A stretch of DNA of 44,937 nt, from assembly GCA_025700225.1 (NCBI GenBank), contig GCA_025700225.1_4339.1; one strand, written 5' to 3'. How positions within the stretch are numbered: the stretch's first letter is position 1; each line of letters opens with the position of its first letter. The notes beneath the pieces are model-generated. The model did no database searches and was not told the DNA's origin. It was given only the letters and a program-made list of their open reading frames with translations. This document shows, one piece after another, positions 357-44,937 of this stretch. Source of the stretch: a phage. Position numbers and translations under genes: made by a program.

Positions 357-845
357 TCAACCTTTCACCGCACGTCCAATAGCAACAGCCTCTTGCCACG
401 GTTTACCATCGAACAGTGCCAGTCGCCCGGCTGTACGGCGTCGCAGGCCAAGTAGGGGTTTGCCATTCTGATTAATGAACAACGCCAGCTTAGCCCGCAG
501 AGTCTTAACATCACCCGAGCGCAGTGCCTTTCCTGTGCCGGTAGTAGCAGCAATAACGCCAGCACCCGCGTTAAACACCAGGTCACACACTGCGTCGAAC
601 TGGCCCTGAGTCAGCGAGTGGTGCGCTGCGGAATCAACGGCAGCTACTGCCTTCGCCATATCGCGATTGAGTAGCAGCAGTCCCTGACCCGGCGTGATGG
701 TCTGCCCCGGCTTAACGTCGGCACCGTAATGCCCGAACCCTACGGTCAGGTACTTTTCATCCGGGGTAGCGCGATACGCAGTTCCGCGGAACCCCTCAAA
801 TGCGGCAGTGAAATGCAGCCCATTATCTGAAATGTTTCGAGACAC
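357..845 (-). CDS. endolysin, GH24 lysozyme (T4 E / lambda R-like muramidase)
   Basis: 162 aa; catalytic-region motif FEGFRGTAY...TVGFGH typical of phage lysozymes; GTG start preceded by AAGGAGG. Confidence 0.88.
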   Translation of the reverse strand: MSRNISDNGLHFTAAFEGFRGTAYRATPDEKYLTVGFGHYGADVKPGQTITPGQGLLLLNRDMAKAVAAVDSAAHHSLTQGQFDAVCDLVFNAGAGVIAATTGTGKALRSGDVKTLRAKLALFINQNGKPLLGLRRRTAGRLALFDGKPWQEAVAIGRAVKG

Positions 846-1104
846 GCTTATGTCCTCCTTTCGACTGGTAATGCAGCCACGACTGACGAATCTGTCGCAG
901 CGCTACCAGGGTAATTAATGTTTCCGGCAGCGTCGGTGACATGCTGCCTTGTAACAGGTGGATACAACCGGCAGCGCAGACAATAGCAGTCAGGATATAG
1001 AGCACTCGGCCAAACAGGCCATCGTCTACGCTGGGGTGGTATACGTTAAACAGCGATGTACCCCCGATTGCGAGCATACCGCCAAACCAGAATAACTCAT
1101 TCAT
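823..1104 (-). CDS. holin (two predicted TM helices, highly basic C-terminus)
   Basis: 93 aa from internal ATG at 1104 preceded by GGAGG; hydrophobic segments LFWFGGMLAIGG and VLYILTAIVCAAGCIHLL; overlaps endolysin start. Confidence 0.7.
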   Translation of the reverse strand: MNELFWFGGMLAIGGTSLFNVYHPSVDDGLFGRVLYILTAIVCAAGCIHLLQGSMSPTLPETLITLVALRQIRQSWLHYQSKGGHKRVSKHFR

Positions 1105-1405
1105 TGCCACCTCCGCGACGTGCGATGTATTCTCCGGCGACAATGCCAGAGAGACGGGAATAAATCGGCATCCAGAGAATAGCAATGATGAACCCAAGGC
1201 CCGCTATTTCGCGTTCACCTGCGATACCGAACCATTGAGCGGCCAGAGGTGCACCGAATACGGCGCACGCAAAGCCAGTGGCGAGAAAACAGAGAGCATC
1301 GACAGGGCCGGTAATAGTAGCTTTGTGTTGCCGTAGGCCTATTACCCCGCCAGCTAATGCGGCAGCCAGAAGCCAGCCTGTCACAGTTTCAGTAAATTTA
1401 TCCAA
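1097..1405 (-). CDS. holin-like/antiholin membrane protein (three predicted TM helices)
   Basis: ORF in track 1097-1537; best RBS (GGAGG) precedes a TTG at 1405; three hydrophobic helices; immediately upstream of holin and endolysin. Confidence 0.5.
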   Translation of the reverse strand: MDKFTETVTGWLLAAALAGGVIGLRQHKATITGPVDALCFLATGFACAVFGAPLAAQWFGIAGEREIAGLGFIIAILWMPIYSRLSGIVAGEYIARRGGGNE

Positions 1406-1621
1406 GATGAATCCTCCAGGTGCGTATTTAGTATGCTGTACCTGGAGGATACCACGGTTAGGAATTATCCGAATATCTCTTATTCCAATATTCAGCCAGT
1501 CGTTGTGCGGGTGTCTTCCGGCGCTCATGTAATTCAAGATACGTCGGATGCGTGTTGAAATGTCTTTTACGTGGTGACAGCGGCGCTTTGCCGCTGTGTT
1601 TCAGAATGTCAGTTGCGAGCG

Positions 1622-4721: not shown

Positions 4722-4892
4722 GATTCGTTGCCGTTGTGATTCTTTGGAGGAGGGTTGTGCCTTTATTCTTTTTACTTGGTAACTAGAGGGCAGGCCTTAA
4801 GGCCTGCCCAATAATAGTTACATTTTTACGGTTGCGAATCTACGGCACTTTAAGAAAATCAGTTACTTAGTAACTTTGAGGGATTTTTACAA

Positions 4893-5035
4893 TAGACTAT
4901 GGCCCTTCCGAACGCGTCAGCGTAACTACACTCAGGACTAACGTCCCGCTCCGTTACATGCCGCGCCGCGGTCGCTTGCTCATACTTCACAAGCTCATGT
5001 GGAGCTTACCATATTTTTAAGTAAAAGTCAATACC
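4893..5035. repeat. conserved ~140-bp non-coding element, copy A (candidate structured RNA / cis-regulatory leader)
   Basis: about 85% identical to 37311-37455 in the same orientation; no ORF; hairpins with compensatory changes. Confidence 0.6.
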
Positions 5036-17966: not shown

Positions 17967-17997
17967 AAAAGGCCCCGTTTGGGGCCTTATTTTTTTT
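17967..17997. terminator. bidirectional intrinsic terminator at the convergent junction
   Basis: stem aaggcccc/ggggcctt followed by T8 on plus; placed between the end of the rightward operon and the tail-fibre stop. Confidence 0.75.
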
Positions 17998-27867: not shown

Positions 27868-27905
27868 ACTTGCACACCCCAATATAATAGGGCACTATTC
27901 ACCTG
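27868..27905. promoter_or_regulatory. promoter-operator motif copy (TTGCAC...TATAAT rightward; TAATAG-N4-CTATTC palindrome)
   Basis: 35 nt upstream of the plus-strand island gene at 27924; reverse reading faces the chaperone gene. Confidence 0.55.
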
Positions 27906-30488: not shown

Positions 30489-30516
30489 GAAAAAGGCCCC
30501 GAGAGGGGCCTTAGTT
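30488..30516. terminator. bidirectional intrinsic terminator
   Basis: stem aaggcccc/ggggcctt, loop gaga; T-rich flank on both strands; between kinase stop and major tail protein stop. Confidence 0.75.
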
Positions 30517-31689
30517 TTATGCGTAGGTGATACGCTGGATAACGATAGACGACTGATACTGGTTGCCGGTGGCCTGGCCTTCAATAGACTGAGTGATTGA
30601 CTCTGGGCCGCCAATCTCAGGTGTAACCGCCGTAAGCTCCGCGCGTTTCAGGCTGAATGACATAGCCCCGTTTACGCCCGCCAGAATAGAGTTAATCTCT
30701 ACCTGTTGCTCGTTGATAAACTTCTGAATCATAGCCATGTCGTACAGCTTACCCGCGATGGAAAAGGTGTTAGCCGCACGGCCTCGTTCAACGAACGCTA
30801 CGTTACTGTTGCCGAGTTCGAACTGGGCGGAGGCACCGTTATTGTTGGTGATGGTCAGCGTGTCGCAACGCAACGGCGACGTACCATCGAACACTGACAC
30901 ATCAACCGAAGAGAACGGCTCGTCGGTGAAGGTGACCGTAGAGAAGTCGGATCCAGCTGGAGGCGCGGTAAGAATCTCCTGACTCAGGCCGATGAACGGG
31001 AAGCTGCCGGTTACCATCGCGTTAACCGCCTGCTCGATGGTAAAGCCAGAGATTTCCACACCTTTGGTCAGCATGTACGCGTCAGGGTTTCCGCACTGGC
31101 CTTTGAACCAGGTCAGGATAGAGAACGTTTTACACGCGTTGCCAGTTTCCAGCTTGTCGCCGGTTTTAGCATCGGTCGTTACAGTTTCTGCGGTAAGCGT
31201 GTGCTGAATACCTGCACCCGTTACGACAAGAGCGGAAACTTCGGTAACGATGAACGGCTTAGCGTTATCTCCAGTCAGACCGGTGAACGCAATCAGGTCA
31301 CCCACTTCAACACCGTCGGTAATGAAGCTGCCAGATGCGCGGGTGAACGTTTTACCGGCCGGCGCTACGGTAATAGAGGCTCCAGTAATCTCGACGCCCG
31401 CCTGCCATGTAGAGGTCATTGCGCCTGCAAGGAAATCATCCTGACTTTTCGAGCTAAGCTCGATGGCGTATTCACCAGTTACCTGTTTGTTACCTGTGCG
31501 GATAGACGTGGTTTCACGGCTGCCGTCCAGTTCGTTGGAGGTCAGCGCGTCGCGCGTTACCGCGGGAACACCGCCAGTATTGCGCAACGGCGACCATACC
31601 GGGGAAGTCGGTGTTACGCCCGGGGTAGTTTCCGCCACATAGAATTGCGCGGTGTTCGCGCCCTTAAAAGGAGTTGTAGCCATATTCAC
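30517..31689 (-). CDS. major tail protein
   Basis: 390 aa; Thr/Gly-rich; positioned after head-tail connector genes and followed by a strong terminator. Confidence 0.65.
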   Translation of the reverse strand: MNMATTPFKGANTAQFYVAETTPGVTPTSPVWSPLRNTGGVPAVTRDALTSNELDGSRETTSIRTGNKQVTGEYAIELSSKSQDDFLAGAMTSTWQAGVEITGASITVAPAGKTFTRASGSFITDGVEVGDLIAFTGLTGDNAKPFIVTEVSALVVTGAGIQHTLTAETVTTDAKTGDKLETGNACKTFSILTWFKGQCGNPDAYMLTKGVEISGFTIEQAVNAMVTGSFPFIGLSQEILTAPPAGSDFSTVTFTDEPFSSVDVSVFDGTSPLRCDTLTITNNNGASAQFELGNSNVAFVERGRAANTFSIAGKLYDMAMIQKFINEQQVEINSILAGVNGAMSFSLKRAELTAVTPEIGGPESITQSIEGQATGNQYQSSIVIQRITYA

Positions 31690-35927: not shown

Positions 35928-36629
35928 TTATTTCCTCAGGGCTTTAAGTTGCCGTTCAAATTCGGCAGGGTTCGATTTGTACAGAGCTAAACGCTCCGCT
36001 TCGTTCATGTCTTTAAACGCTGGTGCGGCCCCGCCGCCTTTGCCACCGGAAGCCCCGCCGCCGGAAGCTGCATTTGCTTTAATCAAATGCGAAAACGCTT
36101 TGTGTTCACGCAGGTATTTGCGGAACTGTTCAGGGTCAGTCGTGATTACATTGCCATCTGCACCGACAAACTTAGTAACCACATCATCGCCCTCAAACTC
36201 AGTCTTAACGAACGGAGCAAGAATGTCTACTGCTTCCGGTGTAATGAAGTCACCCGCGAAAGAGCCTAACACTGCTTTACGTTCGCTGCCGAGGATGCGC
36301 TCTGCCATTTTGGAGATGCGACCGTCTTTCTCGGCTAACACCGGGTCATACTGGCTACGAATCGTCTTTTCGAACTCGTCCATCTTACCAGCGGCTTTTA
36401 ACGCCTCCTGGTGTGCGCGCTGCCGTTCTTCTTCGGCCTCTTTTGCTTTACGAGCAGCTTCTTTCTTCTCGTTCAGCAATGCTTCCTGGTTAGCCTTAAG
36501 CCCGGCAACTTCTTTCTCAATCAGCGCCTGAACTTCTTCGGCTGTGTACATTTTAGGAGCGTCACCGCCACCTGATTTATCTTCTGCCCCAGCTTCTTCC
36601 TGGAACGGATAACGTAAAAAACGATTCAT
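35928..36629 (-). CDS. scaffolding protein
   Basis: about 233 aa; charged coiled-coil EEVQALIEKEVAGLKANQEALLNEKKEAARKAKEAEEERQRAHQEALK; directly upstream of capsid gene; start ATG 36629 (track extends to a TTG at 36683). Confidence 0.6.
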   Translation of the reverse strand: MNRFLRYPFQEEAGAEDKSGGGDAPKMYTAEEVQALIEKEVAGLKANQEALLNEKKEAARKAKEAEEERQRAHQEALKAAGKMDEFEKTIRSQYDPVLAEKDGRISKMAERILGSERKAVLGSFAGDFITPEAVDILAPFVKTEFEGDDVVTKFVGADGNVITTDPEQFRKYLREHKAFSHLIKANAASGGGASGGKGGGAAPAFKDMNEAERLALYKSNPAEFERQLKALRK

Positions 36630-36711
36630 AGTCAGTATGTCCCCTGGACGTTGGAATCCGGGCCACCCGGATTTACATGTCAAGAATAAATTATTCCAAC
36701 ATGCAAGGCAA

Positions 36712-36975
36712 CTATTCCAGAATATTCCTTACATAATCCTGCAACATGAACACTTTCAGACGCAGTTGCCGTACACATTCGGCGTTCTGGACATCAATAG
36801 CTAAATCCTCGTCAGCGTCGTTACTTGGTGAGGCCAGCTTGCACGGAGGCTGCATCATCGTCGTATCCGGGGATGGAATTAGCGTTTGCGACGGCGCGAG
36901 ATTTGAGCAGGACGCGAGCATCATCGAAAGTGCACACGCTGCGGCCGGGCGTTTTAATGTACTTAACGACTTCAC
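36712..36975 (-). CDS. Rz1: o-spanin (Rz1-like outer-membrane lipoprotein), overlapped with Rz
   Basis: 87 aa in the +1 frame of Rz; lipobox LASC after signal peptide; Pro-rich mature region; GTG start with GAGG. Confidence 0.55.
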   Translation of the reverse strand: MKSLSTLKRPAAACALSMMLASCSNLAPSQTLIPSPDTTMMQPPCKLASPSNDADEDLAIDVQNAECVRQLRLKVFMLQDYVRNILE

Positions 36976-37207
36976 GGGTGATTACCTCAGATTCAGTCTT
37001 GCCTTTGGAATCGGCGGCGGCGGCCTTAGATTCATCCTGCTGCTGCCGTTGTGTTTTCTTCGCTAACTCAGCCTGTGCTTTCCGCTGTTGCTGCGAAACG
37101 AGATTCGCCCGACCTTCGTTCCAGCCGCTGCGATACTGGTAGATTCCGTAGCCGTATGTCAGGAGGATGAAACATGCTCCTGCTACGACAGTTGCGTTAA
37201 GATTCAT
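36821..37207 (-). CDS. Rz: i-spanin (Rz-like)
   Basis: 128 aa; N-terminal TM VVAGACFILLTYGYGIY, then Gln/Ala/Lys-rich periplasmic coiled-coil; RBS AAAGGAGAAAC. Confidence 0.65.
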   Translation of the reverse strand: MNLNATVVAGACFILLTYGYGIYQYRSGWNEGRANLVSQQQRKAQAELAKKTQRQQQDESKAAAADSKGKTESEVITREVVKYIKTPGRSVCTFDDARVLLKSRAVANANSIPGYDDDAASVQAGLTK

Positions 37208-37229
37208 GTTTCTCCTTTCTCGATAAGTA

Positions 37230-37255
37230 AAGCCCCGCCCTAAAGCGGGGCGCTA
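37230..37255 (-). terminator. GC hairpin upstream of Rz (attenuator/terminator on minus strand)
   Basis: stem gccccgc/gcggggc; on the minus strand followed by TTTACTTATC and then the Rz RBS. Confidence 0.45.
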
Positions 37256-37310
37256 GTCCTTATCATTTAAACATAGAAACGGCGTAATCTTAAGATAATT
37301 CTCAGACAAG

Positions 37311-37455
37311 TAGACTGGCGGCCTTCCGGATACGTCAGCGGAACTACACTCAGTGCTTACGCACCGCTCCGTTCCCTGCCGCAACGCGGTCGCTTGCGAT
37401 AACTCACAAGCTCAGGTGGAGCTTAGCATATTTTTAGTGAAAAGTCAACTATTAG
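37311..37455. repeat. conserved ~140-bp non-coding element, copy B
   Basis: about 85% identical to 4893-5035, same orientation; stem positions covary. Confidence 0.6.
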
Positions 37456-37504
37456 AATAGTTTTATTCCATTTTTACAATTGAGTGTAATAATTGGAATA
37501 GTCG

Positions 37505-37556
37505 GTATCTGTGCTTGCGTACACCAATATAATAGGGTACTATTCACTTATCGAAA
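37505..37556. promoter_or_regulatory. promoter-operator motif copy (near-identical to 4676-4721, inverted)
   Basis: TATAAT at 37527-37532 facing the plus gene at 37578; TAATAG-N5-CTATTC palindrome. Confidence 0.55.
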
Positions 37557-37577
37557 CGAGAGATAAGGAACTTAAAT

Positions 37578-37790
37578 ATGAAAGAATTAATTATCGCGAT
37601 ATTGCTGACATTGGCAGTTTCACTGGTAATTGCTGCTGGTATACGTAGCTTAGATAAACACGGGTGTGAGAACTACGGAGATATCACAGGCCGAGAGGTA
37701 ATGTATAGTTACACAACTTGTTATGTAAAAACTGATAGGGGGTTTATCCCTCGTGAAGAACTTAATTTTAGAGCAGCGACACATGAATAA
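37578..37790 (+). CDS. small membrane-anchored protein (moron)
   Basis: 70 aa; N-terminal TM/signal MKELIIAILLTLAVSLVIAAG; RBS AAGGAA; lone plus-strand gene with own promoter and terminator inside the leftward virion operon. Confidence 0.6.
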   Translation: MKELIIAILLTLAVSLVIAAGIRSLDKHGCENYGDITGREVMYSYTTCYVKTDRGFIPREELNFRAATHE

Positions 37791-37792
37791 AA

Positions 37793-37820
37793 CTAAGGCC
37801 CCATAACGGGGCCTTTTATC
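37793..37820. terminator. bidirectional intrinsic terminator
   Basis: stem aaggcccc/ggggcctt, loop ataac; followed by TTTTATCATT. Confidence 0.65.
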
Positions 37821-38280
37821 ATTCCGGCTTAGTAACCTTCGCCGCTTTACTCACGGCCTCTACGCCATCGGCATCGGTAACTTTCACGAAGTATTCGCCT
37901 ACCGCGTTTACTGTCAGAGACAAAGCCTCTTCTGGCGCGTTGACAACTTCCTTCCCGTCTTTGTACCAGGTCAGTGAATACGGCGCTTTACCCGCCTTAA
38001 CTTCTACCGTGATTACCGCACTTCCGTCTACCAGTTCCGCGTCTTTCGGTTGCACAGAGAAATACACGTCACCAGCGTCTTCCAGATACGGAATCTCGTA
38101 GAGCATACCCGCTGCCGTTAGCGCAATACCGGTTTTATCTGCGTACGGCATCTCGTCTACAGGTGTACCCAGTACACTTTCATCTTCAACGTAGGTCACG
38201 TTCTCGCCGGAGCCTGACACGCGGGCGTACTGGACAACACGGCGCGACGGAACATCGGTTACTTTGAAAAAGCCCATCAT
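37819..38280 (-). CDS. Ig-like domain virion protein
   Basis: 153 aa; C-terminal YSLTWYKDGK...GEYFVKVTDADG resembles Ig-like domains. Confidence 0.55.
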   Translation of the reverse strand: MMGFFKVTDVPSRRVVQYARVSGSGENVTYVEDESVLGTPVDEMPYADKTGIALTAAGMLYEIPYLEDAGDVYFSVQPKDAELVDGSAVITVEVKAGKAPYSLTWYKDGKEVVNAPEEALSLTVNAVGEYFVKVTDADGVEAVSKAAKVTKPE

Positions 38281-44488: not shown

Positions 44489-44640
44489 TTCTTCTCTCCT
44501 GCATAAGCTGCTTTCAGTGTCTGCATCGCGGCGAACCAGAACGCGTCCGCGGGTACAGTAGTGCTCAGGTTACTAACGGCAATACGTGCCATCAGTTGTG
44601 CGTCTTCGAATGCTTCGGTATCTGTGATTTTCATTTTCAT
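44485..44640 (-). CDS. small hypothetical protein (51 aa)
   Basis: TAATG-coupled to the upstream gene and ATGA-coupled to the downstream gene. Confidence 0.35.
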   Translation of the reverse strand: MKMKITDTEAFEDAQLMARIAVSNLSTTVPADAFWFAAMQTLKAAYAGEKK

Positions 44641-44852
44641 TATCCTGCGTTGAAAGAGCCAAGTACAATGCCACTTTCTTTTGGTTTCTTGATTTCGGTA
44701 ACTTTTACGTTATCGTCGAAGTTATTCATGGTTGTTGGGTCGTCCTTAGCGCGAACTAAGCTCAATGCTTCTTCCGGGGACTTAGCCCACACCACAAAAG
44801 AATCGTATTGGTCATAATCACACCAGTCGGCTTCTACCAAATATAATTTCAT
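44640..44852 (-). CDS. hypothetical early protein
   Basis: 70 aa; first gene downstream of the promoter at 44887-44916. Confidence 0.5.
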   Translation of the reverse strand: MKLYLVEADWCDYDQYDSFVVWAKSPEEALSLVRAKDDPTTMNNFDDNVKVTEIKKPKESGIVLGSFNAG

Positions 44853-44886
44853 TTCTCTCTACTCCGTTCTCGTTGTCGATGGAGTA

Positions 44887-44916
44887 AATATAATAGGGTC
44901 TAAGGTAATAGTCAAC
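44887..44916 (-). promoter_or_regulatory. sigma70-like promoter with TAATAG repeats, reading leftward
   Basis: on minus strand TTGACT-N18-TATATT; contains two TAATAG half-sites; about 30 nt upstream of the gene at 44852. Confidence 0.5.
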
Positions 44917-44937
44917 TAGTCATTGCAGAAAATAGAT

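Follow-up and report, generated by a model that had tools for sequence, protein, structure and literature searches.

Known spanin systems

The largest family of overlapped spanin genes listed by Kongari et al. (2018, BMC Bioinformatics 19:326, PMC6139136) is the Jersey family, which has 27 members, including K1G, K1H, K1ind1-3 and HK578, and in which the two genes overlap by 155 bp and the o-spanin cysteines at positions 45 and 67 are constant. The two-component systems named there as experimentally tested are only those of lambda and T7 (embedded) and of P2 (overlapped), and complementation is reported for T4 pseT.3/pseT.2 and for T1 gp11 (Kongari et al. 2018, PMC6139136). T4 is also the classical precedent for spanin genes that are unlinked from the holin and endolysin genes (Kongari et al. 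2018, PMC6139136). Among phages closer to the one studied here, the genetic separation of the spanins from the holin/antiholin and endolysin was stated explicitly for phage Schulenberg (PMC6763661), and the papers on phages Golestan and SeF1 number the spanins as ORF7/8 or gp9/10 and the holin and endolysin as ORF66-68 or gp63-65. Our literature search turned up no Jersey-family spanin that had been tested experimentally.

The stretch of DNA that we analyzed, referred to below as the window, is 44,937 bp long and is the genome of a Kagunavirus-like (Guernseyvirinae) siphophage. It contains two overlapping genes that we read, with a probability of about 0.9, as a two-component spanin of the Jersey family, with a predicted function in lysis, the last step of which, the breaking of the outer membrane, is the task of spanins. 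The genes and their ribosome binding sites are as follows.

36821-37207, minus strand: i-spanin gene, an ORF of 128 aa with an N-terminal membrane helix, a long helical Gln/Ala/Lys-rich domain predicted to be periplasmic, and a periplasmic Cys92
37212-37217, minus strand: Shine-Dalgarno sequence AAGGAG of the i-spanin gene, read from the sequence
36712-36975, minus strand: o-spanin gene, 87 aa with a GTG start; lipobox LAS-C with the Cys at 23, Ser24, a Pro-rich linker, a C-terminal helix, Cys45 and Cys67
36985-36988, minus strand: Shine-Dalgarno sequence GAGG of the o-spanin gene, within the i-spanin coding sequence and 9 nt before the GTG

Family membership of the pair

The ORFs, their signals and reading frames, their conservation, family membership and synteny were established directly. 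The locus matches 340 phage records at 60-95% nucleotide identity, 235 of them at 80-95% (nine above 90%) and the other 105 at 60-80%. These records come from Escherichia, Salmonella and Raoultella phages, mostly of the genera Kagunavirus and Jerseyvirus (Guernseyvirinae), and many of those of close relatives annotate the pair as i-spanin and o-spanin. At the protein level, a tblastn search located an o-spanin homologue in 665 phage records from several genera, with identities of 81-91% to full-length Kagunavirus hits and 71-79% to Jerseyvirus hits. A PHROG search matched the i-spanin to phrog_2536 at 1e-54 and the o-spanin to phrog_5672 at 6e-30 and to phrog_1267 at 4e-17, all three annotated as 'Rz-like spanin', so that both subunits are similar to members of the Jersey family (phrog_2536 for one, phrog_1267/5672 for the other). 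Because the overlap has the same length of 155 nt and the o-spanin cysteines are exactly at 45 and 67, the pair is a plain member of that family. The preliminary description of this DNA, made without database searches, had proposed an i-spanin/o-spanin pair, and the PHROG families, the annotations of relatives and the Jersey-type overlap and cysteines all agree with it.

Comparison with described members of the family (Jersey, SETP3, SS3e, K1G, K1H, K1ind1-3, HK578 and others) revealed the same 155-nt overlap, the same +1 frame, the same Cys45 and Cys67, the same helix-linker-helix i-spanin and the same place between the head-morphogenesis/Hoc-like genes and the scaffold gene. The differences are only allelic, namely Asn4 in place of Lys4 in the i-spanin and a few substitutions in the Pro linker, and the o-spanin of K1ind1 is 83% identical to that of the window. 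Schulenberg (QEG06797/QEG06798; MRA 2019, PMC6763661) shares about 90% nucleotide identity over the locus as well as the gene order; it differs in that its o-spanin is annotated with 48 aa and that another plus-strand gene, annotated as a sliding clamp, lies between its Hoc-like gene and its spanins.

Scans of both proteins against Pfam (E<=1) and NCBIfam returned no spanin family, and cross-matches to the other PHROG families of 'Rz-like spanin' were weak (2e-5 to 1.5e-3). Membership in the lambda Rz (Pfam Phage_lysis)/Rz1 sequence family was rejected on the missing Pfam and NCBIfam matches. The name Rz/Rz1, under which the pair was first described, is therefore suitable as a functional analogy but not as a statement of detectable homology, since no Pfam hit was obtained even at E<=1. 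The pair would share with lambda Rz/Rz1 the functional class, periplasmic cysteines, an inner-membrane protein of type II whose periplasmic domain is helical, and an outer-membrane lipoprotein that is small, Pro-rich and encoded in the +1 frame; unlike in lambda, the o-spanin gene is overlapped and not fully embedded, the genes are outside the lysis cassette, and the mature o-spanin, with its 65 aa, is longer and has a C-terminal helix. T4 pseT.3/pseT.2 resembles the pair in being unlinked from the holin (t) and endolysin (e) genes and in having an o-spanin with a C-terminal helix and two periplasmic cysteines, whereas its genes are separated instead of overlapped, its sequence family is another one and its i-spanin has no cysteine.

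Features of the i-spanin

The i-spanin gene starts with an ATG, and its AAGGAG lies 4 nt 5' of the start. Hydropathy analysis delimited a hydrophobic stretch at about residues 3-23, with Kyte-Doolittle values of 1.98 over 15 residues (3-17) and 1.54 over 19 residues, and residues 33-66 include 8 Gln, 8 Ala and 4 Lys. In the AlphaFold model, residues 5-64 form one unbroken helix (pLDDT 77-93), followed after residue 64 by two short helices of low confidence; the models of both spanins were computed from single sequences and their mean pLDDT is only 65 and 57. The protein thus has the single N-terminal TM domain and the otherwise helical prediction of the i-spanin class as defined by Summer 2007 and Kongari 2018, and hydropathy, composition and AlphaFold agree with the initial account of a 128-aa protein with one N-terminal TM helix and a long Gln/Ala/Lys-rich helical part. 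A type II (N-in/C-out) topology is predicted from homology.

The first four residues (37196-37207) are MNLN, and relatives have MNLK or MNWK at this place. With Asn4 instead of the Lys4 of relatives, the cytoplasmic tail carries no positive charge, an uncommon state among type II signal anchors. The stretch VVAGAC, ending in Cys12, fits the bare lipobox pattern. We nevertheless rejected the i-spanin as a lipoprotein, since a charged n-region is missing, the Cys stands at residue 12 and the hydrophobic helix extends beyond it.

Features of the o-spanin

The N-terminus of the o-spanin, MKSLSTLKRPAAACALSMMLAS followed by the lipobox Cys, fits the PROSITE PS51257-type lipobox rule, with the Cys at 23 and a K/R within the first 7 residues. 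The protein thereby carries what is expected of an o-spanin, a signal for signal peptidase II with a lipobox and an invariant Cys. In E. coli, a lipoprotein with Ser at +2 goes to the outer membrane. The +2 residue of the mature o-spanin (residue 24) is Ser rather than Asp, so the protein would be sorted to the outer membrane. The mature form would have 65 aa, and all six of its prolines are within its first 30 residues. The single-sequence AlphaFold model consists of a signal helix, a disordered Pro linker and a C-terminal helix at residues 55-86 (pLDDT 76-93). Both subunits have cysteines in the parts predicted to be periplasmic: Cys92 in the i-spanin and Cys45 and Cys67 in the o-spanin.

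In 8 loci representing 5 lineages the signal peptides have diverged beyond recognition but the lipobox Cys persists. The lipobox itself varies and reads LASC or LSAC in Kagunavirus, LNGC in Jerseyvirus SS3e, LVGC in Pantoea phage AH01, LTAC in Serratia phage Tsm2 and LSAC in Dhillonvirus BMA1. LNGC is listed among the lipobox variants of o-spanins (Kongari et al. 2018, PMC6139136). Both the LAS-C lipobox and the Pro-rich body attributed earlier to the 87-aa ORF are borne out, the former by its fit to the PROSITE-type rule and the conservation of the Cys, the latter by the position of the six prolines.

A unimolecular spanin of the T1 gp11 type, which has an N-terminal lipobox and a C-terminal TM domain, was considered and rejected for the o-spanin. 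Its last 20 residues (VRQLRLKVFMLQDYVRNILE) include 6 charged ones and correspond to an amphipathic helix, not to a TM domain.

A lipobox scan covered every start codon in the six frames of the 44.9-kb window. It returned six ORFs with a rule-conforming lipoprotein signal, of which only the o-spanin has a Shine-Dalgarno sequence upstream; the five others are all without one and none is spanin-like.

Genome position and relation to the lysis cassette

The neighboring head genes and the genes of the lysis cassette were identified by their PHROG matches.

37819-38280: Hoc-like Ig decoration protein (phrog_3945 at 1e-84)
35928-36683: head scaffolding protein (phrog_206 at 4e-56)
357-845, minus strand: endolysin, lysozyme-type (phrog_33703 at 1e-45, phrog_7 at 8e-38)
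823-1537, minus strand: two holin-family genes (holin/antiholin) upstream of the endolysin (phrog_2508 at 4e-30, phrog_2359 at 1e-28)

The placement of the holin and endolysin given in the preliminary description agrees with the matches at 823-1537 and 357-845, but the distance of 36 kb that it gave between them and the spanins does not hold. The genomes of relatives are unbroken across the junction between the end and the start of the window (44538-44937 joined to 1-400) and no terminal repeat was found within the window, from which it follows that the window is a complete genome opened at an arbitrary point; its length is the whole-genome size for phages of its group. Since distances across the window depend on the linearization, the 36 kb is an artefact of the map. 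On the circular or permuted map the two loci share a strand, and 8,086 nt separate the endolysin stop from the start of the i-spanin gene downstream of it; the genes between them are those for terminase, portal, head morphogenesis and the Hoc-like protein.

The spanins had also been described as embedded among head genes of the virion operon. They are indeed located between the Ig-like head gene and the scaffold gene, but the upstream head operon does not include them: they are split from the Hoc-like gene by a promoter region of 370 nt, a plus-strand ORF of 70 aa and a bidirectional terminator (37795-37815), and they are the first genes of a leftward unit that continues into the scaffold and major capsid genes. 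The order head-morphogenesis/Hoc-like, spanins, scaffold, capsid recurs in K1ind1, SS3e, Pantoea phage AH01, Serratia phage Tsm2 and Dhillonvirus BMA1, and in BMA1 the i-spanin gene and the head-morphogenesis gene overlap by 8 nt. The emphasis initially put on an unusual placement is consequently not sustained, because the arrangement is conserved across Guernseyvirinae and Dhillonvirus and has already been published. The family, the architecture and the unlinked position are all known from the literature and from many GenBank annotations, and the pair is an ordinary member of a known family at the genomic place usual for it, of little weight as a discovery. The Jersey family as such is large, with a homologue in those 665 records, and its spanin annotation has been widely propagated.

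A second spanin encoded next to the endolysin in a complete genome had been named beforehand as one part of a result that would speak against the pair. The PHROG search and the window-wide lipobox scan detected no rival spanin beside the endolysin or elsewhere in the window, and no PHROG was matched by the ORFs at 129-337, downstream of the endolysin.

Several minor features surround the boundary with the Hoc-like gene. Three hairpins, at 17967-17994, 30491-30518 and 37795-37815, are nearly identical. They consist of AAAAGGCCCC, a loop and GGGGCCTT, with a T-run, and appear to close the three leftward structural transcription units. The one at 37795-37815 divides the Hoc-like gene from the spanins and has a terminator-like score in both orientations. 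The 70-aa ORF (37578-37790, plus strand) between the Hoc-like gene and the spanins is convergent on the head operon, has an N-terminal hydrophobic segment and matches only PHROGs of unknown function. We consider its place a variable moron slot because relatives differ there, with a sliding-clamp-like gene in Schulenberg and an endonuclease VII in SETP13.

Proposed mechanism

The topology, lipidation, complex formation, expression timing and lysis function proposed for the pair are inferred from the lambda, T4 and P2 paradigms. The N-terminal helix of the i-spanin would insert in the inner membrane and its helical domain would reach into the periplasm. The o-spanin would be translated from the internal GTG in the +1 frame, exported, lipidated on Cys23, cleaved by signal peptidase II and, with Ser at +2, sorted to the outer membrane. 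The C-terminal regions of the two proteins would then bind each other across the periplasm, possibly stabilized by intermolecular disulfides (Cys92 with Cys45 and Cys67 as the candidate residues), and the complex would stay caged in the peptidoglycan mesh until the holin and endolysin destroy the wall. Once the wall is gone, the complex would fuse or disrupt the inner and outer membranes and lysis would be complete. Because such a complex would be harmless until then, spanin genes would need no linkage to the lysis cassette, and their expression together with the capsid genes would cost nothing.

The two membrane proteins could also have a role other than lysis, in superinfection exclusion or in a membrane-associated step of head assembly. 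A role of this kind would explain the placement beside the scaffold and capsid genes; the pair heads the scaffold-capsid unit, it is coupled in Dhillonvirus to the head-morphogenesis gene by the 8-nt overlap, and the literature on the Jersey family contains no experiment that we could find. An E. coli phage with a holin and an endolysin normally needs an outer-membrane disruptor, and the lipobox scan provided no other candidate for one in this genome. All the defining sequence features of spanins are present in the pair and T4 demonstrates that spanin genes need not be linked to those for holin and endolysin, so we consider a non-lysis role very unlikely and retain the assignment as a spanin.

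The start of the o-spanin gene

Part of the records give the o-spanin a shorter form. Genes of 147 nt are annotated in GenBank for Schulenberg, EC3-1 and many other records (the truncated genes include L001 3311-3457 from Schulenberg and L002 3313-3459 from EC3-1), and phrog_5672 is a profile of 47 positions built on this form. In the window, the corresponding product would be a protein of 48 aa from the ATG pair at 36858/36855 (MMQPPCK...), soluble or cytoplasmic and without a lipid anchor, and the pair would not be a canonical spanin. Such a protein would have no signal peptide and could not reach the periplasm. The 40 codons upstream are open in every relative and encode a hydrophobic stretch and the lipobox Cys even where the sequence has fully diverged, and the GTG has a GAGG 9 nt ahead of it, whereas no sequence resembling a Shine-Dalgarno precedes the ATGs. 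The long form is the one used in the K1ind1 RefSeq record (87 aa) and in the numbering of Kongari et al. (Cys45, Cys67), who also found 64 o-spanins with wrong starts in the databases (Kongari et al. 2018, PMC6139136). Even the Schulenberg sequence, with its truncated annotation, holds the full VKSLSTLKR...LASC signal in frame. We therefore regard the short form as highly improbable. The 87-aa GTG form, for which the GTG is the first possible start because of an in-frame TAA at 36982-36984 on its 5' side, is the conserved and biologically sensible o-spanin. It should replace the 48-aa annotation, which, together with its PHROG profile, omits the lipoprotein signal.

Overlap and coding in both frames

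The two ORFs of the preliminary description, 36821-37207 and 36712-36975, were both recovered on the minus strand in the overlapped architecture that it proposed. The o-spanin gene is in the +1 frame of the i-spanin gene, shares 155 nt with it and runs 109 nt past its stop, which defines the overlapped class; the genes are therefore adjacent in the manner of spanins, with the o-spanin in the other frame. In the 109 nt beyond the i-spanin stop, compared among 5 relatives, codon position 3 of the o-frame takes 22/37 variable sites as against 10/72 for the remaining sites (Fisher p=1.6e-6). In the same number of relatives, the part of the i-spanin gene outside the overlap has its variable sites enriched at position 3 of its own frame (p=1.4e-4), and the 155-nt overlap has a clear third-position signature in neither frame, as expected for dual coding. 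Judged from this substitution pattern, the o-frame beyond the i-spanin stop is under purifying selection. That the +1 ORF is an untranslated frame left open by chance, as overlapping ORFs of such size may arise in GC-balanced DNA and as the missing third-position signature within the overlap could suggest, is already refuted by the pattern of conservation seen in the sequences, namely the third-position excess past the i-spanin stop, the presence of the ORF in 665 phage records of several genera and the conserved lipobox of its relatives.

The region upstream of the spanin genes

The region upstream of the i-spanin gene contains a hairpin, a repeated non-coding element and a second promoter-like site.

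37232-37251, minus strand: GC-rich hairpin of 8 bp (7 G-C pairs) with the loop TTTA, followed by TTTACTTATC; 25 nt upstream of the i-spanin start
37306-37448: copy B of the non-coding element of about 140 nt, a direct copy of 4888-5031 (copy A), 80-86% identical
37526-37554, minus strand: second promoter-like site, TCGATA-17-TATATT, pointing towards the spanins; repeat families D1, D2 and I1

Both the GC hairpin and the element copy B that had been reported to precede the spanins were found. The hairpin is terminator-like on the minus strand, and its stem is kept through a compensatory C-to-T / G-to-A change in the metagenomic relatives L013 and L025. A repeat search matched 37311-37448 of the element to 4893-5031. 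The element is present in 181 phage records, almost always without annotation, and in 53 IMG/VR loci. By blastn, two copies were detected in only 43 of these 181 records.

The right end of copy B, read on the minus strand, has a -35 sequence TTGACT (37443-37448), a spacer of 17 nt, and TGn with TAAGCT (37420-37428). TTGACT, TGn-TAAGCT and the 17-nt spacing are invariant in the 32 distinct copies that were aligned, and the sequence of the spacer varies. Such an arrangement matches a leftward promoter of the extended -10 type, and we predict the site to be promoter-like. The roughly 100 nt downstream of it are structured, with covarying helices: for A2 of the element, columns 30 and 69 pair as UA in 16 copies, AU in 10 and GC in 6, with none of the 32 broken, and the inner hairpin occurs with at least 5 different complementary stems. 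Single-sequence folding z-scores of the element were not significant on either strand, and the counts of G-U against A-C favor neither strand. The element matched no Rfam family, at the gathering threshold or at E<=1, and ARAGORN found no tRNA in it. A coding reading was ruled out by indels of 1 nt among the copies.

Copy B lies ahead of the spanin-scaffold-capsid unit and copy A ahead of a leftward arm of small genes that ends in the holins and the endolysin. No terminator above chance was detected between copy A and the holin and endolysin genes. The element may be a leader, an antiterminator, an operator region or a plus-strand sRNA, and inspection by eye revealed no convincing plus-strand sigma-70 promoter for the last of these. 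As a more specific and rather doubtful proposal, it could combine a promoter with a structured cis-acting leader RNA, for example a put-like antiterminator or attenuator acting with the GC hairpin that follows. If this were true, the unlinked spanins would be co-regulated with the holin and endolysin through a shared RNA element. A literature search for transcriptomes of Guernseyvirinae yielded nothing usable. The element is the only thing at the spanin locus that is possibly new, and with most of its 181 records leaving it unannotated, this promoter-leader element could merit a separate look.

The second promoter-like site (37526-37554) belongs to a family of promoter-plus-palindrome sequences that is repeated in the genome. 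Members are located at 2837, 4679, 8389, 8432, 11603 and 15299 on the plus strand and at 27869-27902 and 37507-37561 on the minus strand, and their layout is TTGACA/TCGATA followed by GTGAATAGTAGCCTATTATA, with an AATAG...CTATT palindrome in the spacer. The family looks like a set of regulated promoters with one common operator. A related AATAG/CTATT palindrome adjoins the element at 37450-37461.
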